Source: Burkholderiaceae bacterium (lineage in GTDB: Bacteria; Pseudomonadota; Gammaproteobacteria; Burkholderiales; Burkholderiaceae_C). Taken from it: DNA of 64,000 nucleotides. The DNA is taken from NCBI GenBank assembly GCA_040079635.1, contig JBEBJY010000003.1, positions 34,566-98,565 on the forward strand, in the 5' to 3' direction. The translations under genes were made by a program, and so were the position numbers. Of the stretch, positions 2,178 to 63,877 are shown one piece after another. Below the pieces are notes generated by a model that was not told the origin of the DNA, searched no databases, and saw nothing but the letters and a program-made list of their open reading frames with translations. Positions within the stretch are counted from its first letter, which is position 1. Each line of letters begins with the position of its first letter.

Positions 2178-3434
2178 TTAAATGACGACATCTTTAAGCA
2201 CCGATTTACCAATGATGAGCTGCTGGACCTCGGTCGCGCCTTCGTAGATGCGCAGGGAGCGGATGTCGCGGTACAGATGCTCGACCATGCTGCCGACCTG
2301 AACCCCCTGCCCGCCGTGCATTTGCAGGGCCATGTCGATGACTTTTTGTGCGTTTTCGGTGGCGACCAGCTTGGCCATGGCGGAGGCGCGGCTGTAGTTT
2401 GCGGCGGTTTGTGGGGTAGCCGTACCCAGTTTGTCGCGCATCCAAGCGGCGCGGTAGGTCAACAGCGCGGCGCTGTCGATCAAGGCGGCCATGTCACCAA
2501 ACTTGGCCTGCGTCAGCTGCATGTCCGCCAAGGTGCCGCCAAACATGCGGCGGGTTTTGGCGAAGCGAAGCGCTTCGGCCATCGCGCGGCGGGCCATGCC
2601 CAAAGCGGCGGCGGCGACGGAGGCGCGAAAAATGTCCAAAGTCCGCATCGCCAGCTTGAAGCCTTTGCCCTCTTCGCCCAGCAATGCGCTGGCAGGAACG
2701 TTGCAATCGTTAAACCGCAGCGTCGCCAGCGGGTGTGGGGCCATGACGTTGATGTGTTCGGATGTGTCCAAACCGGGCGAGAGCGCATCGACAATGAAGG
2801 CGCTGATGCCACGAACGCCGCCCTCGGGGTCGGTTTTGGCAAACGTTACGTAAAAATCGGCCAAACCGCCATTGCTGATCCAGGTTTTGACACCGCTGAG
2901 GAAATACATGTCAAATGGACCGCCATTTTGAGACATAGCCGGCGTTTTATATACATTAGATGCTATTGTTTTCATAGCTGCCACGTCTGATCCGGCATCC
3001 GGCTCGCTCAAGGCAAACGCGGCGATTTTCTCGCCCCGCGCCACCGCAGGCAGGTAAGCCGCTTGCTGCGCAGGTGTACCCGCCAGGGTGATGGCGCCAC
3101 TGCCCAAACCCTGCATGGCAAAGGCAAAGTCGGCCAGAGGAGAATGAAAAGCCAGCGTTTCACGCAAAATCACCAGCGCGCGAGAATCGAGTTGCGGCAG
3201 CGCGCCACCGTGCGCTGCGGGAACGCAGTAGCGCAGCCAACCGCCCTGCCCCAGGCGTTTCACCCAGTCTTTGCAGGCGCGGCGGTCGTCGGATTCGTCA
3301 ACCTGCTGCTGCGGTGCCCAGTCGGCCAAACCCCGCGCCAGATCGGCATGAGCAGCGTCGAAGAATGGCAGGTCGTACTGCGATGTCGTGCAAAAGACAT
3401 CAGGTTTAACGCTGGATTTGTTCAGTGCAGTCAT
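2178..3434 (-). CDS. Acyl-CoA dehydrogenase family protein
   Basis: 418 aa with SEPDAGSD...TWISNG and C-terminal ...YEGATEVQ motifs typical of ACADs. Its ATG directly abuts the upstream crotonase stop (TGA-ATG). Confidence 0.85.
2934..2982 (-). repeat. Dispersed 50-bp element, diverged copy, in frame inside the ACAD gene
   Basis: catagccggcgttttatatacattagatgctattgttttcatagctgcc, translated as [17 protein letters not shown]. This appears to be an extra loop after the conserved SDVAAMKT segment. Confidence 0.65.
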
Positions 3435-4304
3435 TCAATCACCTCCAAACACAGGCGTTTGCTTGGTCGAAAAGGCCTCAAACGCGCGTTTGAAGTCCTG
3501 CGTCTGCATGCAGATGGCCTGCGCCTGGGCTTCGGCTTCGACGGCTTGCTCGATGGTCATCGCCCACTCTTGCTGCAGCATGGTTTTGGTCATGCTGTGG
3601 GCAAAAGTCGGACCCATCGCCAGGTCTTTGGCCATGACTTGCGCCTTGGCAAGCAAATCTGCCGATTCACACAATCCGTTGAAAAAGCCCCAAGCCAACC
3701 CCTCTTGCGCCGTCATAGCGCGGCCGGTGAACAGCAATTCAGAGGCTCGGCCCTGCCCGATGACGCGGGGTAAGAGCGCACAAGCGCCCATGTCTGCCCC
3801 AGCCAGTCCGACGCGTGTGAACAAAAACGCGGTTTTGGTTTTTTCGGTACCATAGCGCATGTCACAGGCCAGCGCCATCATCGCGCCCGCGCCGGCACAG
3901 ATGCCGTCTATCGCGCCGATGATGGGTTGCGGGCAGTTGCGCATGGTTTTGATCAGATCGCCGGTCATGCGGGTAAATTCCAGCATCTCGGGCATGATCA
4001 TTTTGGTCAGTGGGCCGATGATCTCAAACACGTCGCCGCCACTACAAAAGTTGCCGCCTGCGCCGGTGACGACGATGGTTTTGACGTCTGTGGCGTACTG
4101 CAAGTTGCGAAACAGGTCGCGCAGCTCGGCGTAGGAGTCAAAGGTTAGCGGGTTTTTGCGCTCTGGGCGGTTCAGGGTGATGGTGCCTACGCCGCCCTTT
4201 TCATCGACTTGTTCGTAGCTCCACGCGAAATGGGTGGCGGTATAGCCGGCTTTGGCGTTGAATTGCTGGCGCATCGGGTTGGTTTGGCTGACAAAATGCT
4301 TCAT
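3435..4304 (-). CDS. Enoyl-CoA hydratase/isomerase (crotonase) family protein
   Basis: 289 aa with crotonase-fold motifs ([33 protein letters not shown]). It overlaps marR by ATGA. Confidence 0.85.
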
Positions 4305-4792
4305 GAGGCGTCTTTCAAAGAATGTTGTTTCACGTTGCCCAGCAGCTTGTACAGCGTGGCGATTTCAGTGTCTTTCAGGGTGGCGAAGGCCTCCACAATC
4401 CACAACTCATGCTGATGCGCCATCTCGGCAAACAACGCGCGGCCTTTGGCGGTGAGCCGCACACGGAAGGCACGGCGGTCGCCGTCCACGGTGATGCGCT
4501 CGACCAGACCCTCGGTCACGAGCTGGTCGGTGATGCCGGTGATGTTGCCGCTGGTGACCATCATGCGGCGGCTCAGTTCGTTCATTTTCAGGCCGTCGGG
4601 CGAGCGCTCCAGTTGCGACAAAAGGTCAAACCGTGGCAAGGTGGTGTCAAACTGGACACGCAATTCCGTGCGGATACGCTTTTCAATCAACTGCGTGCAG
4701 GTCAGCATGCGCAGCCACAGACGCAGCTCTTGCGGATGCTCACTGTGAGCGGTGCCGTGCAGTCTGGCTTCTAAATCTAAGTTATTGCTCAT
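4301..4792 (-). CDS. MarR-family transcriptional regulator embedded in the catabolic operon
   Basis: 163 aa with a winged-helix MarR pattern ([48 protein letters not shown]). Confidence 0.85.
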
Positions 4793-4794
4793 TT

Positions 4795-7170
4795 TTACTC
4801 CTCATTTACTATCTTTTTCATAGCTGATGAGGCAACAAATACGGCGGCTACACCCGTATTTGGCACTGTATTTTGCTTCGCCAGCTCGCGGTAGAGCTGA
4901 TCGCGACCGCTCAGATATTGTTTCGGCCAATCGACCTGTTTTTGCAGCTTGGCAGCTTCATGCAGCGTCCAGGCCGGGTCGGCCAGGTGTGGTCGGGCAA
5001 TGGCGCAGAGGTCGGCCCGACCGGCGGCTATGATGCTGTTGACCTGGTCCGCCTCGGTGATCGCGCCCACGGCGATGGTGCGGATGCCCACTTCGTTGCG
5101 GATGCGGTCGGCAAATGGGGTTTGGTACATGCGGCCGTAGATGGGTTTGGCGGTGCGGGTGGTTTGGCCGGAGGACACGTCGATCATGTCGCAGCCAGCG
5201 GCTTTGAAGAGCTTGGCAATCGCCACGGCATCGTCCGCCGTATTGCCACCCTCGGCCCAGTCGTGCGCGGACAGGCGCACACTCATCGGCAAATGTGCGG
5301 GCCAGACGGCGCGGACGGCGGCGAAGACTTCCAGCGGGTAGCGGCAGCGGTTTTCCAGCGAGCCGCCGTAGTCGTCCGTTCGTACATTGGTCAACGGCGA
5401 CAAGAAGCTGGCGAGCAAATAACCGTGGGCGCAGTGCAGTTCCAGCCAGTCAAAGCCGGCGTCTATGGCACGCTGGGTGGATGCGACAAACTGCTGTTTC
5501 AGCACGTCCATATCGGCACGGCTTATGGCGGCGGGTGTTTGGTTTTGCTCACCGTAAGCCACCGCGCTGGCCGACAGCAGTGGCCAATTGCCAGCCGCCA
5601 AGGGCTCATCCGTCACCTCCCAACCCAGCTGGGTGGAGCCTTTGGCACCGCTGTGGCCGAGCTGCAGGCCGATTTTGGCGCTGCTTTGGCTGTGCACAAA
5701 ATCGGTGATGCGCTTCAAAGCCAGCGTTTGCACATCGTTCCACAAACCGGTGCAGCCGGGGGTGATGCGGCCTTCAGGCGTCGGGCTGGTCATTTCCACC
5801 ATTACCAAAGCCGCGCCGCCTAAGGCTCTAGCGCCCAAATGCACCAAGTGAAAATCTTGCGGTACGCCGTCTACCGCGCTGTAGGTCGCCATGGGGGAGA
5901 CGATGACGCGATTTTTGAGGATGATGTCGCGTACTTTGAAGGGCAGCAGCATCGGCGGCAAACCGCAAGCATCTTGGTTTCCACCTGCCAGCCAGTTTTC
6001 ATAGTCGCCTAGCCAGCTTGCATCGCGCAGGCGCAGGTTTTCGTGGCTGATGCGCTGGGAACGGGTCATGAGCGAGTAGGCAAACTGCTCAATCTCCATG
6101 CCGCTGTAGCGCTGCACGTTTTCAAACCACTCGGTTGAGTTGCGGGCGGCGTTCTGGATTTTCAGCACTTCCACGCTGCGCCGGGCTTCATAGGCTTCTA
6201 GCACCTGGGTCATGTCGTGGCCCATCGCGGTTGCTATGGCAAATTCGTTCGCCAAGTCAATCGCGTCTTCCAAAGCCAATTTGGTGCCGCTGCCAATGGA
6301 GAAGTGCGCGGTATGCGCGGCATCACCCATCAAAACGATGGGGACATTTTTGCCGTTTATCTCCACTTCATGCACCCATTTCTTGCAAATAACGCGCGGA
6401 AAACGAATCCAGATCGCCGAGCCGCGCAGGTGTGAGGCATTGCTAATAAGAGGATTGCTATCGAGCTGCTTGGCAAACAGGCGTTCGCAAAAGGCAATCG
6501 CCTCGCTTTGTTCCATTTTGTCCAAACCATGCGCCTGCCAGACTCCTTCAGGCGTTTCGACAATGAAAGTCGCCATCTCTTTGTCAAACTGGTAGGCATG
6601 GGCGGCAAACCAGCCGTGTTCGGTCTGCTCAAAAGCAAAGGTGAATGCGTCGAACTTTTTGCGCGTCCCCAGCCAGACAAAGCGGCATTGCCGCGTGTCT
6701 ATATCGGGCTGGTACACGTCGGCATAGCGGGTGCGGATGCGGCTGTTCAGGCCATCGCAGGCAATCACCAAGTCTGCGTTGTATTGGGCGGCGATGGCTT
6801 GGTCGTCTTGCACGTCCGTCTCAAACACCAGGTTCACGCTCAGCTCCAGGCAACGATCCTGCAGGATATTAAGCAATTTTTTCCGCCCGATACCGCAAAA
6901 CCCATGCCCGGTGGAGCGGACGCTACGGTCTTTGAAGAAGACTTCCACGTCGTCCCAATGGTTGAAAGCGTCGCCAATCAGCTGTGCGCTGGGCGCGTCT
7001 GCTGCTTGCAGGTTTGCCAGCGTTTGGTCAGACAACACCACGCCCCAGCCAAAGGTGTCAAACGGGCGATTGCGTTCCACCACAGTGATGACGTTGGCAG
7101 GGTTTTGCTGCTTCATGAGCAGTGCAAAGTAAAGACCGGCGGGGCCACCGCCTAAGCAGAGTATATTCAT
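4795..7170 (-). CDS. Fused FAD-monooxygenase / Old-Yellow-Enzyme reductase (2-aminobenzoyl-CoA monooxygenase/reductase or salicylyl-CoA 5-hydroxylase-like)
   Basis: The N-terminal half has GGGPAGLYFA and MGDAAH FAD-monooxygenase motifs. The C-terminal half is OYE-like (VSPMATY, HCAHGYLLASFLSP). I chose the start at MNILCLGGGPAG (7170); the ORF track extends to 7206. Confidence 0.8.
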   Translation of the reverse strand: MNILCLGGGPAGLYFALLMKQQNPANVITVVERNRPFDTFGWGVVLSDQTLANLQAADAPSAQLIGDAFNHWDDVEVFFKDRSVRSTGHGFCGIGRKKLLNILQDRCLELSVNLVFETDVQDDQAIAAQYNADLVIACDGLNSRIRTRYADVYQPDIDTRQCRFVWLGTRKKFDAFTFAFEQTEHGWFAAHAYQFDKEMATFIVETPEGVWQAHGLDKMEQSEAIAFCERLFAKQLDSNPLISNASHLRGSAIWIRFPRVICKKWVHEVEINGKNVPIVLMGDAAHTAHFSIGSGTKLALEDAIDLANEFAIATAMGHDMTQVLEAYEARRSVEVLKIQNAARNSTEWFENVQRYSGMEIEQFAYSLMTRSQRISHENLRLRDASWLGDYENWLAGGNQDACGLPPMLLPFKVRDIILKNRVIVSPMATYSAVDGVPQDFHLVHLGARALGGAALVMVEMTSPTPEGRITPGCTGLWNDVQTLALKRITDFVHSQSSAKIGLQLGHSGAKGSTQLGWEVTDEPLAAGNWPLLSASAVAYGEQNQTPAAISRADMDVLKQQFVASTQRAIDAGFDWLELHCAHGYLLASFLSPLTNVRTDDYGGSLENRCRYPLEVFAAVRAVWPAHLPMSVRLSAHDWAEGGNTADDAVAIAKLFKAAGCDMIDVSSGQTTRTAKPIYGRMYQTPFADRIRNEVGIRTIAVGAITEADQVNSIIAAGRADLCAIARPHLADPAWTLHEAAKLQKQVDWPKQYLSGRDQLYRELAKQNTVPNTGVAAVFVASSAMKKIVNEE
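4805..4855 (+). repeat. Dispersed 50-bp element forming the 3' end of the monooxygenase/reductase ORF
   Basis: tttactatctttttcatagctgatgaggcaacaaatacggcggctacaccc. It is read on the minus strand as GVAAVFVASSAMKKIV, followed by the stop 2 nt before the marR ATG. Confidence 0.85.
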
Positions 7171-7390
7171 GCCTAAATAGTTTAGACTTAAAATATATTT
7201 TGTCAATCGGGTATTTCTGTATTTATTTTTTGTTAAAAGTACTTAGGATTCTTAATGCGTGAACAAAATTGCATTCATGAAAAACCATCAGCCTAGGGTT
7301 TATCCTAGGAAAAAAAATGCCTGATACGTTTAACATACATGCACAATAATTCACATTTCAGCCATTTACATTCATTCATCAGGAGACTCC

Positions 7391-10548: not shown

Positions 10549-11318
10549 CTGATTTACTCTTATCTGCCAAGAATCTGACTAAGCACTTTGGTGGTTTAGC
10601 TGCTGTGAACGATGTGTCGATTGATTTGTTCAAAGGCCAAATTCACGCCGTGATTGGCCCCAACGGTGCGGGAAAATCAACACTCACAAACTTGGTTTCA
10701 GGGGATTTGGCGTTGACGTCAGGCAGCATTCAACTGAATGGACACGACGTTACAGGCTGGCATGCCGAGAAAATATCACGACAAGGCTTGGGGCGAAGTT
10801 TTCAAAAAACCAATGTGTTTTTACCCCTCACTGTTTGGGAAAACGTGCGCTTAGCAGCACAGTCTCGCGACATACAGCAGCCTTGGAATCCGCTGATTTG
10901 GTTTCAAAGCACACAAAACGCTACGCAATCAATAGCAGCTCAGGCAATAACCGCAAAGGCTATAGAGCTTTGCAAGCTTGAAAATCGCATGCATGCTGTT
11001 GCTGGAACCATCAGCCATGGCGAGCAACGTCAGTTAGAGATTGCGATGACTTTAGCGACCCAACCACAAGTTTTGCTGCTGGATGAGCCCTTGGCGGGTA
11101 TGGGCGTGGCAGAAGCGGAACGCATGATTGAACTACTGCATACTTTGAAAAGAGACCATGCCATGCTGTTAGTTGAGCATGATATGGACGCCGTGTTTGC
11201 ACTAGCAGACAAGCTCACAGTGATGGTCAACGGGCAAGTGATTGCTAGCGACATTCCAAGCCGAGTGCGAGCAGACGTCAAAGTGCAAGCAGCTTATTTA
11301 GGTGAAGAACATGTCTGA
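10545..11318 (+). CDS. ABC transporter ATP-binding protein (LivG-like)
   Basis: Walker A GPNGAGKST, signature HGEQRQLEIA, Walker B LLLDEP. The start at MTDLLL (10545) overlaps the LivM-like stop (ATGA). Confidence 0.85.
   Translation: MTDLLLSAKNLTKHFGGLAAVNDVSIDLFKGQIHAVIGPNGAGKSTLTNLVSGDLALTSGSIQLNGHDVTGWHAEKISRQGLGRSFQKTNVFLPLTVWENVRLAAQSRDIQQPWNPLIWFQSTQNATQSIAAQAITAKAIELCKLENRMHAVAGTISHGEQRQLEIAMTLATQPQVLLLDEPLAGMGVAEAERMIELLHTLKRDHAMLLVEHDMDAVFALADKLTVMVNGQVIASDIPSRVRADVKVQAAYLGEEHV
10918..10968 (+). repeat. Dispersed 50-bp element-like segment in frame inside the LivG-like ATPase
   Basis: gctacgcaatcaatagcagctcaggcaataaccgcaaaggctatagagc. It shares a 17-mer, aatagcagctcaggcaa, with the gcvT copy. 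Translated as ATQSIAAQAITAKAIE. Confidence 0.65.
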
Positions 11319-15417: not shown

Positions 15418-17313
15418 TCAGGGTTTGAGAATATTTAACGCTGTATCTGCATAAAGCGATGACACCAATTCTGCTCGCTCCTTCAAAACCGCTCGCTGGT
15501 TGATACTGCCTTTGTCGGTAATCTCACCCTTGTCAATATTTGGCGGCTCAGTCAAGACAACTGCTCGCGCTACTCGACTAGCAGAACCAGTAGCTGACTT
15601 TGCCAATTCTGTGATCATGGCAGCCATGGCAGATTGCATTTTTTCGTGTTGAGCAATATCGCGCATCGTTGCACTATCAGGCAAACCAAATGCTTTTCTA
15701 CACGGTATGAGTGCAGGAATAATCAATGCGCCCACCTCTTTTTCATTCAAACCGGTGATCACGACATCTTGAATATAGGGCGCACCTGCGGCTGTGATTT
15801 TGGCGCGCATGGGGCCTACGCTGACAAAAGTTCCAGTGGAAAGCTTGAAGTCTTCCGCAATACGCCCATCAAACTTCAAACCTTTGTGATGGTCTGCTTC
15901 GTCAATCCATTTCACGGCATCACCTGTGCAGAAAAAACCTTCTTCATCAAAGCACTCGTTTGTGGCTTCTGAGTTTCGCCAATAGCCAGGCGTGATGTTC
16001 GGCCCCTTGTAGCGTACCTCCACCTTATCGCCGCAAGGTACAAGTTTCAATGTCAAACCCGAACATGGCAAACCTAAATCACCAGACTTCACGTTTGGAT
16101 TGGTGACAAAAAGTCCAAATGGAGAGCTTTCCGTCATACCCAAACCAGTCGTCATGACGATACGATGACCGATTTCTTTTTCAGCACTTTCAAACAGACT
16201 ATCCCAGATGGGCTGCGCCAGCGATGCCCCCGCGTAAAAAAACATTCTGCAACGTGACAGCAATGATTTACGCAACTGCCTACCATCTTCGTCATCCACT
16301 TTCATGGCTGCAGCGACGTATTCAAAACCTGTTGGTACGTTCAAATACATGGTAGGTGAAATTTCACGCAGATTCTTCAAAGTCTCGCCAATCAACGCGG
16401 GCACAGGCTTGCCATCGTCAATGTACATCGTGCCGCCGTGGTGCAAAATCAAATTAAAGTCATGGTTACCACCAAAAGTATGATTCCACGGCGTCCAATC
16501 AACCAACACCAAAGGGTCTTCAGCCATGGCAGGAATGGATTGGCTGATTTGCTGCACATTGGCGCAAATCATTTTTTGTGTATTGATAACGCCTTTTGGC
16601 AATTTGGTTGAGCCACTGGTGAACAAAAACTTAACCACAGTATCATGCCCAGTAGCAGCAACAGCCTGCGCCACTTGTGGTGTAATTTCAGTTGACAAGA
16701 GGTCGTTAAAATTAATGCACTTTTTGACTGTAGCCTGCGTATTTATTGCCTGATTAGCTATATTATTTGCAGCAAAAACCATGTCTGATTTTCCTACAAA
16801 AGCTATGGCTTTGGCGTATTTTTCTGCATCACTGGCATACACAAAACCAGGTGTGATGGTGTCAAAAATATGTTTGAGCTTTTCAAAATCTTGGCTGAGC
16901 AAACTATACGCAGTAGATACGCTGCAATAAGGCACGCCCACAGTTATAGCCGCGATTGCAATAAGTGCATGCTCCAAGCTGTTTTCGCTCAAAATTGCAA
17001 CGGGTCGATCAACACTTAAACCCATATCGAGCAAAGATTGACCGATACGCTGAGCTTTGTCCCAAGCTTGTGCGTAACTGATATGCACCCATTCACGCGT
17101 CACAGGGTCACGTCTAGCCATCCACGTGCGGTCTGGTCGGTGCTTTGCCCAGTGAATGAGTCGATCTGTCAATCGCGTTTCATACGGTTCTAAATCATTT
17201 TCAGCGCGAAGGTAGGTGTTATCACCAACTTTAGAAACAACAGCACGCGTCACGCCATACTTAAAGTCGCGGTAGATGGGTTGTTTAGGTTGTGATGAAG
17301 ATGTTGTCGTCAT
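15418..17313 (-). CDS. AMP-dependent acyl-CoA synthetase, feruloyl-CoA synthetase (Fcs)-like
   Basis: 631 aa with the AMP-binding motif TSGSTKLPKG. The long N-terminus (YRDF..LRAENDLEPYETRLTDRLIHWA) resembles Fcs-type hydroxycinnamate-CoA ligases. Confidence 0.6.
   Translation of the reverse strand: MTTTSSSQPKQPIYRDFKYGVTRAVVSKVGDNTYLRAENDLEPYETRLTDRLIHWAKHRPDRTWMARRDPVTREWVHISYAQAWDKAQRIGQSLLDMGLSVDRPVAILSENSLEHALIAIAAITVGVPYCSVSTAYSLLSQDFEKLKHIFDTITPGFVYASDAEKYAKAIAFVGKSDMVFAANNIANQAINTQATVKKCINFNDLLSTEITPQVAQAVAATGHDTVVKFLFTSGSTKLPKGVINTQKMICANVQQISQSIPAMAEDPLVLVDWTPWNHTFGGNHDFNLILHHGGTMYIDDGKPVPALIGETLKNLREISPTMYLNVPTGFEYVAAAMKVDDEDGRQLRKSLLSRCRMFFYAGASLAQPIWDSLFESAEKEIGHRIVMTTGLGMTESSPFGLFVTNPNVKSGDLGLPCSGLTLKLVPCGDKVEVRYKGPNITPGYWRNSEATNECFDEEGFFCTGDAVKWIDEADHHKGLKFDGRIAEDFKLSTGTFVSVGPMRAKITAAGAPYIQDVVITGLNEKEVGALIIPALIPCRKAFGLPDSATMRDIAQHEKMQSAMAAMITELAKSATGSASRVARAVVLTEPPNIDKGEITDKGSINQRAVLKERAELVSSLYADTALNILKP
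16726..16773 (-). repeat. Dispersed 50-bp element in frame inside the CoA-ligase gene
   Basis: gactgtagcctgcgtatttattgcctgattagctatattatttgcagc, translated as AANNIANQAINTQATV. Confidence 0.85.
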
Positions 17314-22691: not shown

Positions 22692-23534
22692 ATGCCAAAA
22701 TTCGCCGCCAATTTGACGATGATGTACCCCGAACTGCCGTTTTTAGACCGCTTCGAAGCAGCGGCCAAAGACGGTTTTAAGGCGGTGGAGTACCTCTTCC
22801 CCTACGCTTTTGAGGCCAAAGAGCTGGCTGCTAGGTTAAAAAACAATGGTTTGCAGCAAGTTTTGTTCAACTTACCGCCGGGCGGCGTGGATGCTAAATC
22901 CATAGACGACACGTGGAACAACGGCACACGCGGCATTGCTTGCATCGCGGGGCGTGAAGCTGAATTGGCGGCAGGCGCAGACCTAGCCTTGCGTTACGCC
23001 GAAGTCTTGGACTGCCCCAGATTGCACATGATGGCGGGTTTATTACCTACAAATGCCTTATCCACCGCAGAAAACAAGGCAAATACTCGCCAAACCTACG
23101 TCAACAATGCCAAAACTGCCAGCCAGTTGGTAGCAAAACAAGGCATCAACCTGCTCCTAGAACCCATCAACACCCGCGATATTCCAGGTTTTTTTCTGAA
23201 CCGCCAAGACGAAGCGCATGCTTTGATTACTGAAATCGGTCAGTCAAATGTCAAAGTGCAAATGGATTTGTACCACTGCCAAATCGTCGAAGGCGATGTA
23301 GCGATGAAAATCCGCCAATACCTGCCCACTGGCAATGTCGGCCATTTCCAAATCGCAGGCGTGCCAGAGCGGCATGAGCCTGATATTGGCGAGATGAATT
23401 ACCCGTATTTGTTCGATGTGATCGACAGTTTGGGATACGACGGCTGGATTGGCTGTGAATACAAGCCAAAACTGGGTGGACAGCCGAATGGCACATCCAG
23501 CGGGCTGGGTTGGTTAAAACCATATCTAGGCTAA
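22692..23534 (+). CDS. otnI: Hydroxypyruvate-isomerase family; 2-oxo-tetronate isomerase (OtnI)-like
   Basis: 280 aa TIM-barrel Hyi pattern (FAANLTMMY..., LLLEPIN, GHFQIAG, GCEYKP). Confidence 0.65.
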
Positions 23535-23535
23535 T

Positions 23536-23586
23536 ATTACTATTCTTTTTATAGCTATTCAGGCAATAAATACGCCGGCTAGAGCC
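23536..23586 (+). repeat. Dispersed 50-bp element, intergenic between convergent otnI-like and gcvP
   Basis: attactattctttttatagctattcaggcaataaatacgccggctagagcc. Confidence 0.9.
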
Positions 23587-23597
23587 ATTTTTACACC

Positions 23598-42109: not shown

Positions 42110-43681
42110 ATGTCTAAAACAACTTTACCTACAACGACACCTGTTTTAATCGCCGGAGGGGGCCCTGTTGGGCTTACTTTAGCCGCGTTACTTGCCAGTT
42201 TTGGCATACGCAGCGTGGTGATTGAAAACGACCCGTCTTACTGCACCGGCAGCCGGGCGATTTGTATGTCGCGGCGCTCGCAGGAGATTTTGGGCTGGGT
42301 GGGTGCGGACAAGCCGCTAGTAGCGAAAGGCTTGTCATGGGTGGGTGGGCGCAGTTATTACCGCGACACCGAGGTGCTGCACTTCCAAATGCCCAACGAC
42401 CCCACGCAGCGTTTTGCGCCTATGGTGAACATTCAGCAGTATTTTGCGGAGCAATATGCACACGAGGCCGCTCAAAAATATGGTGATTTGGTGGCTGTGC
42501 GCTGGAATTGCACCGTAAAAGCGGTTCGAGAAATCAAAGACGGCAATGAAGTCGATGTCGTCGACGCTGACGGCCAAACGCAAACCATCCTTGCCGATTG
42601 GCTGGTCGCCTGTGACGGTGGCCGCAGCACCGTGCGCGAGCAGTTGGGCTTGCAGCTGCAGGGCATGCAGTACGACGGCAAATATGTGATTGTGGATATC
42701 CGCCAAAAAACCCAGCGCGATGTCGAGCGGCTGGCTTGGTTTGACCCGCCTAGCAACCCTGGCTCGACCATTTTGATGCATCGCCAGCCTGAGGATGTGT
42801 GGCGGATTGACTACCAAATCCGCGATGAAGAAGACCCCGTGGAAGCCATCAAACCTGAAAACGTGCTGCCCCGCGTGCAAAGCCACCTAACGATGATTGG
42901 AGAAAACGAGCCATGGGAGCCACTTTGGATTTCGATTTACAACGCCAAATGCCTGAGTTTGGAGAAATACAGGCACAACCGCGTGCTGTTTGCGGGGGAT
43001 GCAGCGCATTTGGTGCCGATTTTTGGCGTGCGCGGGTTGAACTCTGGGCTGGATGATGCGGGCAACTTGGCGTGGAAGCTGGCGTGTGTCATCAACGGCA
43101 CGTCGCCAGAGAGCTTGCTGGACACCTATTCCACCGAGCGCGTGCACGCCGCGCATGAAAACATGGCTTTCGGCGCGAAAAGCACAGAATTCATGGCGCC
43201 GCCGAACTTTGCCTTCAAGCTGATGCGGGAGGCGACGCTGAAGTTGGCGCTGGCGGATGAAAAAGTGCGCTCGCTGATTAATCCACGGCAATCGACGCCG
43301 ATTCATTACGTTGGCTCAGCTTTGAATGTGCCAGATGGTGATGCGTGGAGCAGCGAGTTAACCGCACCGGGCATGCCGATGCCAGAGGTGTTGCTTGAGG
43401 ACGGATCGCATTTGACGCAGCAGTTTGGTAAAAGCTTTGTCTGCATCTTCTTGGGAACGGCTTTAGAACAGTCAAAACAGATCAATTTAGAGCAAAACAG
43501 CATCAAACTTTGTAGCATCTTAGGCAATAAATACGCCGGATACAGCCAGTTTGGACTAATAAATCCGAGTGAATCAGCCCTGATATTGGTACGACCAGAC
43601 GGCTATGTGATGGGGCGCTGGAAAGGCTCAGACGTTGCGCCTGTGTTGGCTGCGATGAAGCAAACGGGAGTGACTTTATGA
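42110..43681 (+). CDS. FAD-dependent aromatic-ring monooxygenase (PheA/TfdB/MhpA family)
   Basis: Motifs IAGGGPVGLTLA, CDGGRSTVR and GDAAHLVPIFGVRGLNSGLDDAGNLAWKL. I chose the ATG at 42110; the ORF-track TTG start is 42098. Confidence 0.8.
   Translation: MSKTTLPTTTPVLIAGGGPVGLTLAALLASFGIRSVVIENDPSYCTGSRAICMSRRSQEILGWVGADKPLVAKGLSWVGGRSYYRDTEVLHFQMPNDPTQRFAPMVNIQQYFAEQYAHEAAQKYGDLVAVRWNCTVKAVREIKDGNEVDVVDADGQTQTILADWLVACDGGRSTVREQLGLQLQGMQYDGKYVIVDIRQKTQRDVERLAWFDPPSNPGSTILMHRQPEDVWRIDYQIRDEEDPVEAIKPENVLPRVQSHLTMIGENEPWEPLWISIYNAKCLSLEKYRHNRVLFAGDAAHLVPIFGVRGLNSGLDDAGNLAWKLACVINGTSPESLLDTYSTERVHAAHENMAFGAKSTEFMAPPNFAFKLMREATLKLALADEKVRSLINPRQSTPIHYVGSALNVPDGDAWSSELTAPGMPMPEVLLEDGSHLTQQFGKSFVCIFLGTALEQSKQINLEQNSIKLCSILGNKYAGYSQFGLINPSESALILVRPDGYVMGRWKGSDVAPVLAAMKQTGVTL
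43504..43547 (+). repeat. Dispersed 50-bp element in frame inside the FAD monooxygenase gene
   Basis: caaactttgtagcatcttaggcaataaatacgccggatacagcc, translated as KLCSILGNKYAGYSQ. Confidence 0.85.
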
Positions 43682-44820: not shown

Positions 44821-45822
44821 ATGAAACGCCAACTTTTTCTGAAAACTGCGATGCAAGTGAGCATTGTCACCGCACTGTCCGCTCTGGCATGGCTACCTGC
44901 CGCCAGCCAAGCGCAAGATGCGTACCCCAGCAAGGCCATCCGCTTCGTCGTGCCCTACCCACCTGGCGGCCCGACTGATTTGATGGCTAGGTTGCTGCAG
45001 GGCGAACTACAAACAAGGTTGGGCGTGACTGTGATGATTGACAACAAAGCTGGCGCAGGTGGTAACGTTGGCAGTGCTGATGTGGCGAAACAAGCACCCG
45101 CAGACGGCCATACCATTTTGCTGGCTGCCAGTGGCCCGATGGCTGTGAATTCGACGTTGTACAAAAGCATGCCGTTCAACCCTTTGACTGAGCTTGCGCC
45201 TGTCATTCAAATCTCATCTTTCCCGCTGGTGCTAGAGGTACACCCCAAAGTGCCAGCCAAAACGGTGACAGAGCTGGTTGCTTATGCCAAAACGAACAAA
45301 AAAGATTTGAGCTTTGCCTCCGCTGGCAACGGCACGCCGCAACATTTGGCGGGCGAGCTGTTCAATACCCAAGTGGGTACTGAAATTGCGCACATACCCT
45401 ACAAGGGTGCTGGCCCCGCATTGAATGATTTGCTAGGCGGCCAAGTGCAGGTGATGTTTGATATTTTGGGCAGCTCATTGCCGCACATTCAGTCCGGCAA
45501 GTTGGTTCCTTTGGCGGTCACGTCTGCCAAACGCAGCCCACAATTACCCAACGTACCTACTATGGCGGAGGCCGGATTGGCTGGTTACGAATTTACAGGT
45601 TGGCATGGTATTGCGGTTCGTAATGGAACGCCCGCGCCTGTCATCGAGAAGTTGAACAGCACCTTGAACGCCATTTTCAAAGAGCCGGAGTTCCGCAAGA
45701 AGTGGGAAGCCATAGGCACAACCGTCGTTGGTGGTACTGCTGTTCAATTTGGTGATTTAATCAAGCGGGACACCGTGCGCTTAGGCAAAGTGGTGAAAGA
45801 CGCTGGCGTGACATTAGACTAA
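44821..45822 (+). CDS. Bug/TctC-family periplasmic binding protein
   Basis: 333 aa with a signal peptide and PYPPGGPTD, IPYKGAGPA motifs. Confidence 0.85.
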   Translation: MKRQLFLKTAMQVSIVTALSALAWLPAASQAQDAYPSKAIRFVVPYPPGGPTDLMARLLQGELQTRLGVTVMIDNKAGAGGNVGSADVAKQAPADGHTILLAASGPMAVNSTLYKSMPFNPLTELAPVIQISSFPLVLEVHPKVPAKTVTELVAYAKTNKKDLSFASAGNGTPQHLAGELFNTQVGTEIAHIPYKGAGPALNDLLGGQVQVMFDILGSSLPHIQSGKLVPLAVTSAKRSPQLPNVPTMAEAGLAGYEFTGWHGIAVRNGTPAPVIEKLNSTLNAIFKEPEFRKKWEAIGTTVVGGTAVQFGDLIKRDTVRLGKVVKDAGVTLD

Positions 45823-45922: not shown

Positions 45923-46444
45923 TTATGCTGGTGGCAAAAGCACTTTGTCAACCACGTGAATCACACCGTTATCTGCATCTAAGTTGCCCTGAATGATGCG
46001 GGAGGTGCGACTACGACCATCGGTGATGGTCAATGAGCCGGCAATGTTGTCAACTTTCAGCGTCGCACCTTGTACGGTTTTAAGCGGGGTGTTCAGCGGA
46101 ATATCACCGAAGTTGATCTTACCCGGGAGCAGGTGATATGTCAGAACCGCTGTCAGCAAAGCTTTGTTGGCAAAGAGCTGGTCTTTGGTCATGCTTAATT
46201 CGGCAAGCGCCGCTACAAAAGCTGCATTGTTAGGTGCAAACAAGGTGTAAGAGGTGTTGGCTTGGAATGTTGCCTCCAAATTGGCGGCAACGATAGCGTC
46301 GCCCAGCACACTCAAATCAGTGTTGCTTCGCACCAATTCAAAAAGATCTTTGTTTATATCTGAGTTGCCACCACAAGCGGTCAGTAGCGTACTGGCTGAG
46401 ACGGCTGCGATGCCGCTCATGAGGAGAATATTTCTGCGTAACAT
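45923..46444 (-). CDS. Fasciclin (FAS1) domain lipoprotein
   Basis: 173 aa with a lipobox (LLTAC) and FAS1 motifs (TLFAPNNAAF, IHVVDKVLLP). Confidence 0.8.
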   Translation of the reverse strand: MLRRNILLMSGIAAVSASTLLTACGGNSDINKDLFELVRSNTDLSVLGDAIVAANLEATFQANTSYTLFAPNNAAFVAALAELSMTKDQLFANKALLTAVLTYHLLPGKINFGDIPLNTPLKTVQGATLKVDNIAGSLTITDGRSRTSRIIQGNLDADNGVIHVVDKVLLPPA

Positions 46445-59621: not shown

Positions 59622-60923
59622 TTAAGATAAGAGTTCAGCAAATGACACAAACTGAACCATATCACCAATGGCAATGGTCTGCCCGGGCGGGTTATTGACC
59701 AAGCCATCTCCCCACACGGCAGAAGTTAGTACGCCAGAGCTTTGATTTGGGAACAAGTCCAAACTACCGTTAGCATTGCGTTTAACACGCAAAAATTCAC
59801 GACGTTTATCGGCTCTAGCCCACGTAAAATTTGCCTGAACAGCTATTGATTTAGTAGTGATTTGATCAACTTCTTGAACGCCCTGCAATTTCAACAAAAA
59901 CGGACGAACCAAGAGTAAAAACGTCACAAAACTGGAGACTGGGTTGCCTGGCAAACCTATGAAATGACAGGAGGCGTCCATGTTTTTGACCTTGCCATAT
60001 GCAAACGGCTTGCCCGGTTTGATGGCGATTTGCCACAAATTCAGCTCGCCCAGCGCCTGCACAGCGGGTTTGATGTGGTCTTCTTCACCGACAGAGACGC
60101 CACCGCTGGTCAAAATCAGGTCATGCCCTTCGGCGGCGCTGCTCAATGCGGCTTTGGTTGCATCCAAATTGTCGGGCACGATGCCCATATCGGTCACCAC
60201 GCAACCCAAGCGCTGCAGCAAAGCGCGTAAAAAGAAACGGTTGGAGTTGTAAATGCTACCTGAGGGCATGTCTTGCGGAGCAATGTCGCCCGGCATGACT
60301 AGTTCGTCACCCGTAGAAAACAGCGCGACTTTAGGACGACGTACCACTGGCACGCTAGCCAAACCAATACTAGCCGCTAGCCCAAGCGATGCAGGCGTGA
60401 GACGCTCTCCCTTTTGCAGCACAACTGCACCCAAAGCTACGTCTTCACCAGCACGGCGAATCCATTGGCCCGAGGTGGGAACGACATTGACGCGAATTTG
60501 GCTCAGACCGCTGTTGCCGGTATTTGTATCGGGCAGGATTTCGCACTCCTCCTGCATCACCACCGCATCAGCTCCGGCTGGAATTGACGCACCCGTAAAG
60601 ATACGAGCAGCCGTACCAGCTTGCAAAGCCGTACCGACACTGCCAGCGGGGATGCGCTGGCTGACGCTGAGCACCGTTCCCGCTAAACCCGAGATATTTG
60701 CGACATCTTCACAACGCAAGGCGTAACCGTCCATAGCACTGTTGTCTTGGGGTGGCACATGCAAGCTGGAGTGCATGTCTTGCGCCAAAACGCGGCCATC
60801 GGCGTCGAAAGTGGAGACTTCATCAACGCCGTCTATCGTTGAAACCTGCGCAAGCAGCTCCACCAAGGCAACATCAAGAGCTTTCAGCGGGGCGCGTACA
60901 GGATTCATGGCAGGTTTCGTCAA
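59622..60923 (-). CDS. moeA: Molybdopterin molybdenumtransferase MoeA
   Basis: 433 aa with PPQDNSAMDGYALR, STGDEL and SGGVSVGEEDH motifs. Confidence 0.9.
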   Translation of the reverse strand: MTKPAMNPVRAPLKALDVALVELLAQVSTIDGVDEVSTFDADGRVLAQDMHSSLHVPPQDNSAMDGYALRCEDVANISGLAGTVLSVSQRIPAGSVGTALQAGTAARIFTGASIPAGADAVVMQEECEILPDTNTGNSGLSQIRVNVVPTSGQWIRRAGEDVALGAVVLQKGERLTPASLGLAASIGLASVPVVRRPKVALFSTGDELVMPGDIAPQDMPSGSIYNSNRFFLRALLQRLGCVVTDMGIVPDNLDATKAALSSAAEGHDLILTSGGVSVGEEDHIKPAVQALGELNLWQIAIKPGKPFAYGKVKNMDASCHFIGLPGNPVSSFVTFLLLVRPFLLKLQGVQEVDQITTKSIAVQANFTWARADKRREFLRVKRNANGSLDLFPNQSSGVLTSAVWGDGLVNNPPGQTIAIGDMVQFVSFAELLS

Positions 60924-60927
60924 TTCA

Positions 60928-60979
60928 ATTTACTATGATTTTTATAGCTACTTAGGCAATTAATACGCCGGCTAGAGGC
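60928..60979 (+). repeat. Dispersed 50-bp element, intergenic between thrC and moeA
   Basis: atttactatgatttttatagctacttaggcaattaatacgccggctagaggc. Confidence 0.9.
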
Positions 60980-61012
60980 ATAAATGACCACATTTTTGAA
61001 TCAATATGGCTT

Positions 61013-62455
61013 TTAAGCGCATTTTTCGACGATAAACGCCTTCAACAACGCCACATCCGCCGGCATGTTGACCACGCGCTTGGGCAAAGCTTCAATACCT
61101 TCAAACTTGGCTGGACGATCGGGCTCTACGCCTAAGGCTTCAACAATCGTTGCTGCAAACTTGATGGGCAGCGCTGTTTCCAAAACGATCATCGCCACAC
61201 CTGCTTTGACTTGACCCGCTTTGATAACATCATGCGCAACTTTAAGTCCGTCAGCCGTGTGGGTATCGATCATCAAAGCATGGTCTTTGAAAGTACTGCG
61301 GATGGTGTTCAAGCGGTCGCTGTGCGTGCTTTTGCCGCTTAAAAAGCCATATTTGGTGGCAGCTTCTATAAATGCAGGGTCTTGGCTCAAGTCAAATTGA
61401 CCTGATTTAGCCAGTTGCGTCGTGAACAAATCCTTGGTCTTCGCCCCATCGCGCCCGAGCAAATCAAACACAAAGCGCTCAAAGTTGGACGCTTTGGAGA
61501 TGTCCATGGACGGGCTGGAAGTTTCGTGCGTATCAGCCGTGCCGCGCACGCGGTAGATACCCGTGCGGAAAAACTCGTCCAACACGTCGTTTTCATTGGT
61601 AGCGACGACCAGTTTTTCAATCGGCAAACCCATCATCCGCGCGACATGGCCAGCGCAAACGTTGCCAAAATTACCGCTAGGCACGGTAAAGTTGACCTTT
61701 GATGAGTTCGACCCCGTCGCTTGAAAGTAACCCGCAAAGTAATACACCACTTGCGCCAGCAAACGCGCCCAGTTGATGCTGTTGACCGTGCCGATCTTGT
61801 ATTTTTTCTTGAACTCCAAGTCGTTCGACACCGCTTTGACCATATCCTGGCAGTCGTCAAATACACCTTCAATGGCGATGTTGTGGATGTTCTCGTCCAT
61901 CAGGCTGAACATCTGTGCCTGCTGAAAGGCGCTCATGCGGCCTTGCGGGCTGGTCATGAAGACGCGTACCCCGCGTTTGCCGCGCATGGCGTATTCGGCC
62001 GCGCTGCCGGTGTCGCCACTGGTCGCACCAAAAATATTCAAGATCTCGCCACGGCGTGCCAACTCGTATTCAAACAAATTGCCCAGTAACTGCATCGCCA
62101 TGTCCTTGAACGCCAGCGTCGGGCCGTTGGACAAGGCCTCTAAGTACAGCTTGTCGTCCAACTCTTTCAGCGGGACGATTTCCTTGGTGCCAAACACCTC
62201 TTTGGTGTAGGTTTTTCGGCAAAGTGCCTGTAAATCAGCGGCAGGAATGTCGTCAATGTAGAGCGACAAAATCGCAAATGCCAAGTCTGCGTAGCCGTGC
62301 TTGTCGTAGATATCGCGCAGTTTGCTCAAGGCAATGTCGTTGATTTGCGGATAGTTTTGCGGCAAATACAAACCGCCATCGGGCGCTAAACCTTCAAGCA
62401 GGATTTCGCAGAATTTTCTTGGCGTAGCGTCGCCACGAGTAGACAAGTAATTCAT
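61013..62455 (-). CDS. thrC: Threonine synthase
   Basis: 480 aa with MNYLSTRG..., GPTLAFKD (PLP lysine) and ATSGDTGSAA. Confidence 0.95.
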   Translation of the reverse strand: MNYLSTRGDATPRKFCEILLEGLAPDGGLYLPQNYPQINDIALSKLRDIYDKHGYADLAFAILSLYIDDIPAADLQALCRKTYTKEVFGTKEIVPLKELDDKLYLEALSNGPTLAFKDMAMQLLGNLFEYELARRGEILNIFGATSGDTGSAAEYAMRGKRGVRVFMTSPQGRMSAFQQAQMFSLMDENIHNIAIEGVFDDCQDMVKAVSNDLEFKKKYKIGTVNSINWARLLAQVVYYFAGYFQATGSNSSKVNFTVPSGNFGNVCAGHVARMMGLPIEKLVVATNENDVLDEFFRTGIYRVRGTADTHETSSPSMDISKASNFERFVFDLLGRDGAKTKDLFTTQLAKSGQFDLSQDPAFIEAATKYGFLSGKSTHSDRLNTIRSTFKDHALMIDTHTADGLKVAHDVIKAGQVKAGVAMIVLETALPIKFAATIVEALGVEPDRPAKFEGIEALPKRVVNMPADVALLKAFIVEKCA

Positions 62456-63790
62456 TTACGCCAATTCCTCTTTGCGGATGCGTGTGATTGGCGCTAACAC
62501 GCTGCTCAAAGCCTGCATTTGCACCAAAGCCGAATCCATCTTTGACTCGACACAGTCGTGGGTCAAAATAATCACGTCGGTCTGGGTGGAGCCTTCGCCA
62601 CCGACCTCGTCCGCTTCGCGCTGCAGCACAGCGTCGATACTGATGCCAGCAGTCGCCAAAATGCCTGTGACTTTCGCCAACACGCCAGCTTCATCCGCCA
62701 CGCGAAGGCGCAGGTAATAGCTGGTGACGATGTCGCTCATAGGCACAATTTGCAAGTCGCTCATCGCATCGGGCTGGAAGGCCAAATGCGGCACGCGGTG
62801 GGCAGGGTCGGCGGTGTGTAGGCGGGTGATGTCGACCAAATCGGCAATCACAGCGCTGGCGGTTGGCTCTGAGCCTGCACCTTTGCCGTAGTACAGTGTG
62901 GTGCCGACGGCGTCGCCATGCGCCATGACGGCGTTCATCGCACCTTCGACATTGGCAATCAGGCGCTTGTTTGGCACCAAACTTGGGTGAACGCGCAACT
63001 CTACGCCTTCTTTTCCGTTGACAGTGACACGCTTAGTGATGCCCAACAACTTGATGCGGTAGCCCAATTGCTCGGCGTATTTGATGTCTTGCGCGGCTAG
63101 TTTGGAGATGCCTTCAACGTAGGCTTTGTCAAATTGGACGGGGATACCGAATGCGATGGCGGACATCAACGTCACTTTATGGGCTGCATCGACACCTTCA
63201 ATGTCAAACGTCGGGTCGGCTTCGGCATAACCCAGCGCTTGCGCGTCTTTCAAGGCAGCGGCGAAGTCCAGACCTTTGTCGCGCATTTCGGACAAGATGA
63301 AGTTGGTCGTGCCGTTGATGATGCCGGCAATCCATTGGATGCGGTTGGCGGTTAAACCTTCGCGCAGGGATTTGATGATAGGGATGCCGCCCGCGACAGC
63401 CGCTTCAAACGCGACCATCACGCCCTTGGCTTGGGCGGCTGCGAAGATTTCAGTACCATGCACAGCCAGCAAAGCTTTGTTCGCCGTGACCACATGTTTA
63501 CCTGCGGCAATGGCTTCCATCACCAGCTGCTTGGCGATGCCGTAGCCGCCAATGAGTTCAATCACGATGTCGATATCTGGGTTGGCGATGATGGCGCGGG
63601 CGTCGTTGACGACTTTCACATTTGCGCCAACAACGGCTTGAGCGCGGGCCGTATCAAGGTCTGCCACCATGGTGATTTCAATACCACGACCAGCACGGCG
63701 TTGGATTTCGTTTTGGTTGCGATTGAGAACGTTAAACACGCCGCTGCCGACGGTGCCGATGCCTAAGAGGCCAACTTGGATAGGTTTCAT
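62456..63790 (-). CDS. hom: Homoserine dehydrogenase
   Basis: 444 aa with GLLGIGTVGSG, VVTANKAL and a C-terminal ACT domain. Its stop directly abuts the thrC start. Confidence 0.95.
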   Translation of the reverse strand: MKPIQVGLLGIGTVGSGVFNVLNRNQNEIQRRAGRGIEITMVADLDTARAQAVVGANVKVVNDARAIIANPDIDIVIELIGGYGIAKQLVMEAIAAGKHVVTANKALLAVHGTEIFAAAQAKGVMVAFEAAVAGGIPIIKSLREGLTANRIQWIAGIINGTTNFILSEMRDKGLDFAAALKDAQALGYAEADPTFDIEGVDAAHKVTLMSAIAFGIPVQFDKAYVEGISKLAAQDIKYAEQLGYRIKLLGITKRVTVNGKEGVELRVHPSLVPNKRLIANVEGAMNAVMAHGDAVGTTLYYGKGAGSEPTASAVIADLVDITRLHTADPAHRVPHLAFQPDAMSDLQIVPMSDIVTSYYLRLRVADEAGVLAKVTGILATAGISIDAVLQREADEVGGEGSTQTDVIILTHDCVESKMDSALVQMQALSSVLAPITRIRKEELA

Positions 63791-63828
63791 ATAAATGTCA
63801 AAAAATCACTAAAAATAACAGGTAAAAT

Positions 63829-63877
63829 GGCTGTAGCCGGCGTATTAATTGCCTGTACCGCTACGTTTTCTATAGCC
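63829..63877 (-). repeat. Dispersed 50-bp element overlapping the 3' end and stop codon of the upstream aminotransferase gene
   Basis: ggctgtagccggcgtattaattgcctgtaccgctacgttttctatagcc. The minus-strand reading is ...GYRKRSGTGN-TAA. Confidence 0.9.

Follow-up and report, generated by a model that had tools for sequence, protein, structure and literature searches.

A REP-like dispersed repeat with RPE-like genic copies and nucleotide-level constraint in Polaromonas-like Comamonadaceae

Introduction

REP sequences lie essentially outside genes, have stems that are stable and GC-rich, and are frequently found as inverted pairs; ERIC sequences are reported to be better conserved than the neutral expectation. 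Here we describe another dispersed repeat, hereafter the element, from a 64,000-nt stretch of a Burkholderiaceae bacterium (assembly GCA_040079635.1, contig JBEBJY010000003.1, positions 34,566 to 98,565; hereafter the window, numbered from its first letter). Its family, old and lineage-wide, consists of ~60–70-bp dispersed repeats in low-GC, Polaromonas-like Comamonadaceae. It is a previously undescribed REP-like repeat under nucleotide-level constraint, with genic copies that resemble Rickettsia palindromic elements (RPEs). No description of it was found in the literature searched.

RPEs (Ogata et al. 2000, in PMC10969869) are dispersed repeats, many copies of which lie in unrelated housekeeping genes and are translated there in frame. 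They are about 100–150 bp long, clearly palindromic, limited to obligate intracellular Rickettsia, and plain genic insertions. As with RPEs in that account, the element adds a shared peptide without destroying the protein and the open frame is preserved. It differs in being ~60–70 bp long and weakly palindromic, in its free-living Comamonadaceae hosts, in lying mostly between genes at gene 3′ ends, in several genic replacements of zero net length, and in nucleotide-level constraint across genera; the two are set apart by size and host, not by sequence comparison. By analogy, the element appears to work partly like RPEs without being a member of that family.

BRE, the beta-proteobacterial repeat element (Hot et al. 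2011, PMC3110155), is a repeat of about 90 bp and 69% GC, often in tandem as a variable-number tandem repeat (VNTR), that occurs in Bordetella and Comamonadaceae, with 29 copies in Polaromonas sp. JS666. BRE is mostly intergenic, and some copies lie wholly inside coding sequences (PMC3110155). The latter are a precedent against the view, taken in a first-pass annotation of the window, that in-frame colonisation of housekeeping genes is unexpected in Burkholderiales. Identity of the element with BRE was ruled out by description, on size and GC content (~60 bp, ~40% GC, single). [quoted passage not shown] The element differs from these in having no terminal inverted repeats, no consistent target-site duplication, and no related insertion sequence found in the window or in ~8-kb loci from related genomes.

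Results

Identification and anatomy of the element

A 26-nt core, AGGCAATAAATACGCCGGCTACAGCC, was scanned over the window with up to three mismatches and gave eight matches, compared with none in 100 dinucleotide-preserving shuffles. An nhmmer profile built from these eight seeds found 16 copies at E < 0.05, eight on each strand and never in tandem. The first-pass annotation had listed at least 14 copies, five of them intergenic and nine within ORFs that remain open. All 14 positions were recovered by the profile and ORF mapping agrees with that division; the two additional copies, in moeA and over a lipoprotein-type signal peptide, bring the genic total to 11. The genic class stands with one reservation, namely that the copies at 4805 and 63829 are terminal only, at gene ends.

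The element is bipartite. Its box A is an interrupted palindrome, (G/A)CTA(T/C)-N7-ATAGC, the 7-nt centre of which is AT-rich and variable. After 3–4 variable bases comes T(T/C)AGGCAATAAATACGCC, a lineage-specific conserved spacer or core, and then GGCTA(C/G)AG(C/G)C (box B), followed by ATATTT. A weak right-end box (CYCTAAAA / CCTATTTT) lies ~12 nt beyond ATATTT, and across box B runs a second inverted repeat, AAATACGCC / GG(C)ATATTT. Variants of both inverted repeats pair as A.C or C.A when read as written, and as a G.T wobble when read from the complementary strand. The element is ~40% GC and AT-rich outside CGCCGGC, and its motif information amounts to ~55–60 bits over ~55 nt. Any terminal inverted repeat is limited to a weak resemblance between AAATTTGC and GCATATTT, in low-information flank positions. 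Box A also fits the T-N11-A layout of LysR-type boxes, as a resemblance only. The 16 window copies are as follows.

2936..2981, minus strand: weak copy (nhmmer 9.5 bits, E 0.049) inside the acyl-CoA dehydrogenase (ACAD) ORF 2178..3434 (−); despite the score it has an exact CTAT-N7-ATAGC (CTATGAAAACAATAGC) and then ACGCCGGCTA
4798..4866, plus strand: full copy (55.7 bits), the last 23 codons of ORF 4795..7206 (−), 803 aa, an FAD-monooxygenase/old-yellow-enzyme (OYE) fusion; read in frame −2 as ..GVAAVFVASSAMKKIVNEE* and directly upstream of the MarR gene 4301..4792 (−)
10919..10950, plus strand: partial copy (box A and start of core; 15.2 bits) in a LivG-like ATPase gene, encoding NATQSIAAQAIT; motif-specific by decoys
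16716..16782, minus strand: full copy (54.6 bits), frame +0, in the feruloyl-CoA synthase (Fcs) gene 15418..17313 (−), encoding MVFAANNIANQAINTQATVKK
23529..23594, plus strand: full intergenic copy (59.2 bits) filling the 63-nt gap between a convergent AP-endonuclease-like gene and gcvP
25243..25304, minus strand: diverged copy (26.5 bits), frame +0, in gcvP, encoding a 20-residue peptide
27232..27299, minus strand: best-scoring copy (60.6 bits), frame +0, in gcvT, encoding GAINIIAAQANNTPATAING
29316..29364, plus strand: weak copy (16.7 bits) in a small lipoprotein-like ORF, over the signal peptide MKKITTLLIAVSAIFTLASC; exact CTACACTTTTAATAGC; kept in the related locus L111
36275..36325, plus strand: copy (32.9 bits), frame −2, in the chrA gene 36163..36795 (−), encoding the transmembrane-like SASVCIALAAITFVAIAI; kept in L111 and L113
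39587..39642, plus strand: intergenic copy (53.1 bits) with a perfect 26-nt core, 23 nt past the stop of ORF 39220..39564
40752..40810, minus strand: intergenic copy (43.4 bits) between ORF 40283..40753 and the DUF1801/OmdA gene 40820..41443, overlapping the upstream stop codon
43490..43556, plus strand: full copy (55.7 bits), frame +2, in the FAD-dependent monooxygenase gene 42098..43681 (+), encoding SIKLCSILGNKYAGYSQFGL; common to L114 and L035
45864..45923, minus strand: intergenic copy (37.3 bits) between the convergent genes 44821..45822 (+) and 45923..46444 (−, fasciclin); its second inverted repeat, AAATACGCC/GGCGTATTT, is the best preserved of all
59807..59864, minus strand: diverged copy (25.0 bits), frame +0, in the moeA gene 59622..60923 (−), encoding QITTKSIAVQANFTWARADK
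60924..60989, plus strand: full intergenic copy (59.0 bits) separating moeA (−) from the threonine synthase gene 61013..62455 (−); L092 and L033 have orthologous copies in which stems and core are kept and flanks have diverged
63821..63885, minus strand: full copy (55.6 bits) at the 3′ end of an aminotransferase gene, giving ~the last 7 codons, ..(Y)RKRSGTGN, and the TAA stop; the same arrangement is found in the orthologues L087 and L033

In the FAD-monooxygenase/OYE fusion the last Pfam domain, Oxidored_FMN, ends at aa 752, so that the element forms a C-terminal tail. Element-encoded peptides of the window copies include IAAQANNTPATA (GcvT) and GNKYAGYS.

Some genic matches score only 15–33 bits, and one reading of them is coincidence, with native Ala/Ile-rich helices resembling the repeat through codon usage. 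Native peptides at the GcvP, AroA and HscA sites do resemble the peptide of the element's frame +0, and the peptide can occur without the motif, as in Acidovorax delafieldii (see below). The controls speak otherwise: windows codon-shuffled within ORFs gave a genic match of at least 15 bits in 0/100 cases, and 150 decoy motifs made by permuting the element's own triplets gave 0.007 such matches per window. The window has 13 CTAY-N7-ATAGC sites where 0.33 would be expected, and 13/13 are element copies. An artefact of composition or codon usage was thus ruled out for the weak matches, as was, in the window, an independent and more widespread box A palindrome. Together with clusters of rare codons lying exactly at element sites in GC-rich relatives, these results largely refute coincidence, which we consider highly improbable.

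Distribution of the family

We scanned 185,579 GTDB species genomes with the exact 20-mer GGCAAWWAATACGCCGGCTA and obtained at least 109 matching stretches, fetched as loci of ~8 kb each. The repeat is therefore enriched well beyond the window, the point that the first-pass annotation had wished to see checked genome-wide. Among the matches listed, almost all are Polaromonas metagenome-assembled genomes (MAGs), recovered from habitats such as glacier-fed streams; a few fall in Candidatus Aalborgiella, one is a Rhodoferax MAG and others are further beta-proteobacterial MAGs. A match in an Opitutaceae MAG (L028) was set aside as a 20-mer matched by chance, and L019 scores weakly (22 bits). The window GcvT is 100% identical to a protein of a Burkholderiaceae bacterium MAG.

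Applied to the 109 fetched loci (784 kb), the profile found 222 copies. Besides the ascertained copy there are ~0.14 extra copies per kb in the loci, compared with 0.2 per kb in the window, or overall ~1 per 5–7 kb; these densities imply several hundred copies per genome. No match was found in the plasmid and phage collections scanned, and in the viral collection three IMG/VR contigs (L153, L154, L155) carry the exact core 20-mer.

Related arrangements were seen outside this group. GC-richer Burkholderiales contigs (~59–60% GC; L116 at 3961, L123 at 5826, L134 at 4163) contain GCTAT-N7-ATAGC-N19-21-GGCTAGAGGC, their spacers bearing no relation to the Polaromonas core, and box A with box B may define a wider superfamily that includes these contigs. 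In an intergenic region of Acidovorax delafieldii 2AN (L151, ~806), a genome of 65% GC, ACTATCAAATAAATAGCTGCTT is followed by a GC-rich hairpin, GCGCTTGCAACACAAGCGC; here box A is joined to a different right-hand module.

Intergenic copies lie downstream of genes

About 70% of copies are in short intergenic regions just downstream of genes. The flanking genes are convergent for 51 copies, tandem for 77 and divergent for 7; in the background, convergent pairs make up 18% and divergent pairs 14%. Copies in tandem contexts lie a median of 24 nt past the upstream stop. Copies often occupy an entire short spacer and may overlap stop codons. This intergenic placement is REP-like. A promoter reading (reverse-strand TTGCCT-N16-TATAGC) was ruled out, as copies lie between convergent genes and inside genes while divergent regions are depleted. 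A sigma-54-like GG-N10-GC in the core is a by-eye candidate only, in which the −12 T is missing.

The position just past stop codons and in short intercistronic gaps is what would be expected of an RNA-level cis element, a transcript hairpin serving 3′-end protection, processing or intercistronic control and retained also in coding mRNA. The palindromic box A would give the same stem in either orientation, the stems vary in a wobble-compatible manner, and in orthologues they are conserved while loops vary. Against it, orientation relative to transcription is not significantly biased in tandem contexts (46 against 31) and genic copies occur on both strands, although the core and box B lack symmetry and are conserved to the same degree. 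The 5-bp AT-rich stem is moreover very weak, there is no terminator-type T-run, and Rfam offers no match. We regard this explanation as distinctly unlikely.

Genic copies keep an open frame

In total 39/235 copies (about 17%) are well inside ORFs of at least 150 codons, and about 20% are intragenic or overlap gene ends. The internal copies favour four of the six frames (+0, 19; −2, 11; +2, 4; −0, 4; +1, 1; −1, 0). The triplet preceding GCA-ATA-AAT is TAG in 126/165 intergenic copies and in 0/19 genic copies read in frame +0, which have CAG (14), GAG (3), AAG (1) or GGA (1) instead; the chance of 0/19 at the intergenic frequency is about 0.24^19. Genic copies are under selection to stay open. 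The stop avoidance proposed in the first-pass annotation is thereby borne out, and its examples of TAA lost from the opposite strand hold up, such as the replacement of TAA by TCA in copy 4798..4866.

In-frame translation of the element in real housekeeping genes, unrelated to one another, was likewise confirmed from open frames and host identities, which were verified in the window for GcvT, GcvP, ACAD, LivG-like ATPase, MoeA, feruloyl-CoA synthase, ChrA, FAD monooxygenase and the FAD/OYE fusion. Host genes in related loci include PurL, DapF, KdsB, Pgi, HscA, AroA, DadA, PolA and DnaG.

Insertion and overlay

The net effect of the element on protein length was estimated gene by gene.

KdsB (L034): +31 aa, against a PDB homologue
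DapF (L083): +26 aa, against a PDB homologue
PurL (L029): +21 aa, against a PDB homologue
ACAD (window): about +12 aa, against Burkholderia homologues and PDB 5idu/5jsc
GcvT (window): +4–5 aa, against Comamonadaceae outgroups
GcvT (sister lineages): +11–15 aa, against Comamonadaceae outgroups
LivG-like ATPase (window): +3 aa, against LivG 1g9x
GcvP (window): +1 aa, against the best PDB GcvP homologue, 9uz6
MoeA (window): no net change, against E. coli MoeA 1fc5
ChrA (window): no insertion; aa 26–189 align to positions 2–164 of the Pfam Chromate_transp profile
FAD monooxygenase (window): 3 aa shorter, no net insertion, against 19 orthologues

The three largest gains, in KdsB, DapF and PurL, are each ~one element length. 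Comparison of these sequences indicates that genic copies are a mix of true in-frame insertions and collinear overlays. The RPE-like insertion claimed at first pass thus holds for PurL, DapF, KdsB, ACAD and GcvT, and does not hold for GcvP, MoeA, ChrA, FAD monooxygenase and LivG, where length changes little or not at all.

In several proteins, native residues stand where box A falls and the extra sequence is confined to the core and right part, as in GcvT (G-A-x-x-I-L) and ACAD (AAM.T.A). By comparison with the E. coli sequence the same presumably applies to AroA, where the box A part would fall on the native SASYF(L/I)A..AI. In gcvT of L110 the 24-nt core alone (21/24 identical, with third-position differences) replaces eight native codons with no change of length. 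Almost all 120 feruloyl-CoA synthase orthologues, at 67–95% identity, have a collinear N-(S/N)-(I/V)-A-x-x-A-x-N-T-x-A-T, the exceptions being P0165, P0166 and P0203, and in one orthologue (L150, 69% identical) element DNA is still recognisable at the same site (25.5 bits). A metagenome scan with the FAD monooxygenase yielded one near-complete close relative (L114, 91%) and two short 93% fragments, giving length comparisons and no filled/empty pairs. The AlphaFold2 model of GcvT is poor (mean pLDDT 62.7; residues 231–311 below 50) and unusable for placing the segment.

Age of the copies and constraint on their DNA

Copies were found at orthologous sites between genomes whose flanks are 70–90% identical, and 51 flank-matched comparisons between fetched loci contained no empty site. 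The DapF insertion is present in 120/120 of the closest DapF clusters (at least 80% identity). In 14 orthologous copy pairs, compared without gaps and with 350-nt flanks 82% identical by BLAST, identity is 90–99% in the stems, 90% in the core (conservation of which is inflated, as the 109 loci were fetched by the exact core 20-mer), 76% in the loop, 54% in the 4-nt spacer and about 50% in the immediately adjacent flanks.

Conservation inside genes also acts on DNA. Conserved residues have an identical codon in 77/102 cases inside genic copies versus 2851/4937 outside, the pairs not being independent. Amino-acid identity is lower inside genic copies than in the rest of the gene, which fits tolerant regions. 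In the chrA copy, synonymous codons are identical at 14/15 and 11/13 positions.

The gcvP site extends this comparison to relatives of 65–68% GC, Polaromonas sp. C04 and Acidovorax carolinensis, in which the DNA of box A is kept by means of very rare codons. The A. carolinensis site reads GCT ACG AAA TCA ATA GCT GCT in a 68% GC context where ATA accounts for 3/149 Ile codons, GCT for 11/318 Ala codons and TCA for 2/120 Ser codons. In six genes of Polaromonas sp. C04 only 2 of 138 Ile codons are ATA, and these are the gcvT and gcvP element sites. A. delafieldii GcvP has the same peptide, ATDSIAARA, in ordinary GC-rich codons and without the DNA motif. Since some lineages hold the motif in rare codons and A. 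delafieldii has the peptide free of it, the GcvP peptide is probably native and the motif superimposed on it at the DNA level. The first-pass annotation had held that peptides shared by orthologues lacking the motif would make the similarity native, and for part of the copies, as at this site, that is the case.

One filled/empty pair was obtained, through the contig of a GcvT orthologue (L157). The convergent gap between gcvP and the AP-endonuclease-like gene holds 63 nt of element in the window and, as an identical copy, in L111, a 33-nt degenerate remnant in L113 and 3 nt in L157, which shows gain or loss. The filled/empty junctions may contain a direct repeat, CTATTC, overlapping the conserved 5′ stem. 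Judged by these alignments, the copies are vertically inherited and constrained at the nucleotide level.

The element compared with mobile repeats and uptake signals

The first-pass annotation proposed a currently mobile, selfish REP or MITE, moved by a RAYT or IS200/IS605-type Y1 transposase and colonising genes in frame as RPEs do. Much in the element recalls REP, BIME and REPIN sequences: hundreds of short copies in both orientations, mostly extragenic and downstream of genes, short inverted repeats able to form hairpins, a GTAG-like tetranucleotide, and long vertical persistence at fixed sites. Inverted-repeat variation gives a G.T wobble on one strand only, as for a single-strand substrate, and element-length insertions in PurL, DapF and KdsB and one presence/absence site would also fit. 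The resemblance to REPs weakens in the details. GTAG exists only in the C variant of the C/G-polymorphic box B and stands beside GCCGGC in about half of copies, so that GTAG/CTAG is polymorphic, and the imperfect GC-rich palindrome with an invariant 5′ GTAG/GTGG that characterises REPs is absent. The stems are AT-rich and 5 bp long, predicted hairpins are marginal (−6.7 and −7.4 kcal/mol), none of the 16 window copies form inverted REPIN-type pairs, and about 20% of copies lie in genes or at their ends.

A consistent flanking target-site duplication was not found; CTAT is present in 19/135 right flanks versus 10–14 in control windows, and a universal CTAT duplication was dropped as a candidate. 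The lack of empty sites in the flank-matched comparisons, copies held in common across deep divergence, position-specific conservation and synonymous-site constraint are unlike neutral junk, and five genic copies involve no insertion. Nothing in the orthologous-site copies or the DapF clusters indicates recent or ongoing movement, and we think present mobility unlikely.

Another candidate is an uptake-signal-like motif, a sequence preferred by the competence machinery that accumulates in place by molecular drive, in genes as well, like the uptake signal sequences of Pasteurellaceae and the DNA uptake sequences of Neisseriaceae (USS/DUS). Both the element and these sequences (Findlay & Redfield, PMC2817400) are over-represented in both orientations, have coding copies in preferred frames at poorly conserved residues, are stable at orthologous sites, occur as related dialects and have a GC-rich core flanked by AT-rich tracts. 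The element's high density, lack of strand bias, zero-length coding copies, enrichment at gene 3′ ends, absence from the plasmid and phage collections and near absence from viral contigs would also fit. USS/DUS cores, by comparison, are 9–12 bp and arise without indels (PMC2817400), whereas the element's motif is ~55 nt long, with an information content far beyond any known uptake sequence. The GcvP, MoeA and ChrA copies fit an origin in place, while the 21–31 aa insertions in PurL, DapF and KdsB and the 60-nt intergenic presence/absence pair cannot come from point-mutation drive. The element relies on rare codons, whereas USS frames track preferred ones (PMC2817400), and no paper in the searched literature pairs sequence-specific uptake with Comamonadaceae. 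An uptake signal seems to us quite improbable.

The gcv operon and other neighbourhood observations

The gcvT-gcvH-gcvP operon has three element copies, one each within gcvT and gcvP and a third downstream of gcvP. Tandem glycine riboswitch aptamers (60 and 48.9 bits) lie directly upstream of gcvT at 28167-28416 (−) and are the only Rfam matches above the gathering threshold. Compared with window positions 23480-28133, L111 is almost identical at the base level downstream of gcvP and ~96% identical in GcvP; in GcvT it is only ~85% identical and has an element-free allele, ..GADVVTMQLNSQGGLERHLEHTPLI... This mosaic relatedness suggests homologous recombination among relatives within the operon. 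In L157 a 247-aa DUF2971-like gene (6189-6932) sits between gcvT and gcvH, splitting the usual adjacency.

A different, GC-rich repeat is found in frame in gcvP of L113 (6759-9722, ~aa 755–775), where it adds 19 aa, YDAVNSSVRVELVETLRQAQGERDF. The Fcs orthologues P0169 and P0201 have ..VEALAKTSTSAVRTG.. peptides in the same loop that holds the AT-rich element in other orthologues; the loop therefore tolerates two unrelated repeats. The GC-rich repeat (..VRVELVETLRQAQGER..) of L113 GcvP and these two Fcs orthologues may be related to BRE (PMC3110155).

GC content of the window falls from 56–59% at 1-8000 to about 48% at 8001-20000, over the ABC transporter and feruloyl-CoA synthase cluster. The regions 4301-7206 and 15418-18183 have an aromatic-acid catabolism context (MarR regulator, FAD-monooxygenase/OYE fusion, feruloyl-CoA synthase). 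The fusion has an architecture like that of aminobenzoyl- or salicylyl-CoA monooxygenase/reductase, and in L150 an enoyl-CoA hydratase gene adjoins the feruloyl-CoA synthase gene.

Discussion

The explanation that we favour, and hold to be moderately likely, has three parts. The family would have spread long ago by insertion. Retained copies would owe their survival to the cell's use of box A and core as a signal at the nucleic-acid level, in its most likely form a candidate binding site at gene ends, recognised as DNA or as a small hairpin, box A being laid out like the site of a dimeric protein. Genic copies of zero net length would have arisen by short-patch templated replacement, that is gene conversion or template switching from the many copies, at native sequences that already resembled box A. 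The L110 gcvT core swap is an example of such a patch-like change.

Several points weigh against this explanation. The predicted single-strand folds are marginal (z −0.9 and −1.4), and the element has no Rfam family, either at the gathering threshold over the window or at E ≤ 1 over two copies. No transposase turned up in the window or the 8-kb loci, with no search aimed at RAYT/Y1 made, and neither terminal inverted repeats nor a general target-site duplication was found. Fetching by the core 20-mer inflates core conservation, gene calls in the fetched loci are crude longest-ORF approximations, and several net-length estimates rest on distant PDB homologues. Two histories are conceivable at overlay sites: conversion towards the motif, or an older copy that has decayed. 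The Acidovorax gcvP pair, with a serine switch (TCA/AGC) and a mismatch cluster of 10/21 nt in the top 4% of windows, is only suggestive of replacement.

In its most far-reaching form, the favoured explanation would make the element a host-maintained signal that overwrites coding DNA at look-alike sites through short-patch templated replacement, with box A a putative protein-binding or hairpin site across Comamonadaceae and the core lineage-specific. We consider this form speculative and rather doubtful. Were it true, unrelated enzymes would gain the same peptide with little or no change of length, a signal would be held against strong GC and codon bias over genus-scale times, and a repeat would spread in a way distinct from both transposition (RPE, MITE, REP) and point-mutational drive (USS).

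In-frame colonisation of housekeeping genes by repeats had been a Rickettsia curiosity, and here it is found in free-living, cold-freshwater Comamonadaceae. Because GcvT, GcvP, PurL, DapF, KdsB, AroA, PolA and DnaG of free-living hosts carry copies, the phenomenon is not tied to reductive intracellular genomes. The repeat DNA is more constrained than the peptide it encodes and survives by means of rare codons, which points to selection at two levels on the same coding sequence. For annotation, and for inference of homology and horizontal gene transfer in Polaromonas MAGs, the family should be masked or modelled, and it offers a ready lineage marker. Its genic sites are a natural system for overlapping protein and nucleic-acid constraints, one that makes spread by insertion, conversion or drive testable.

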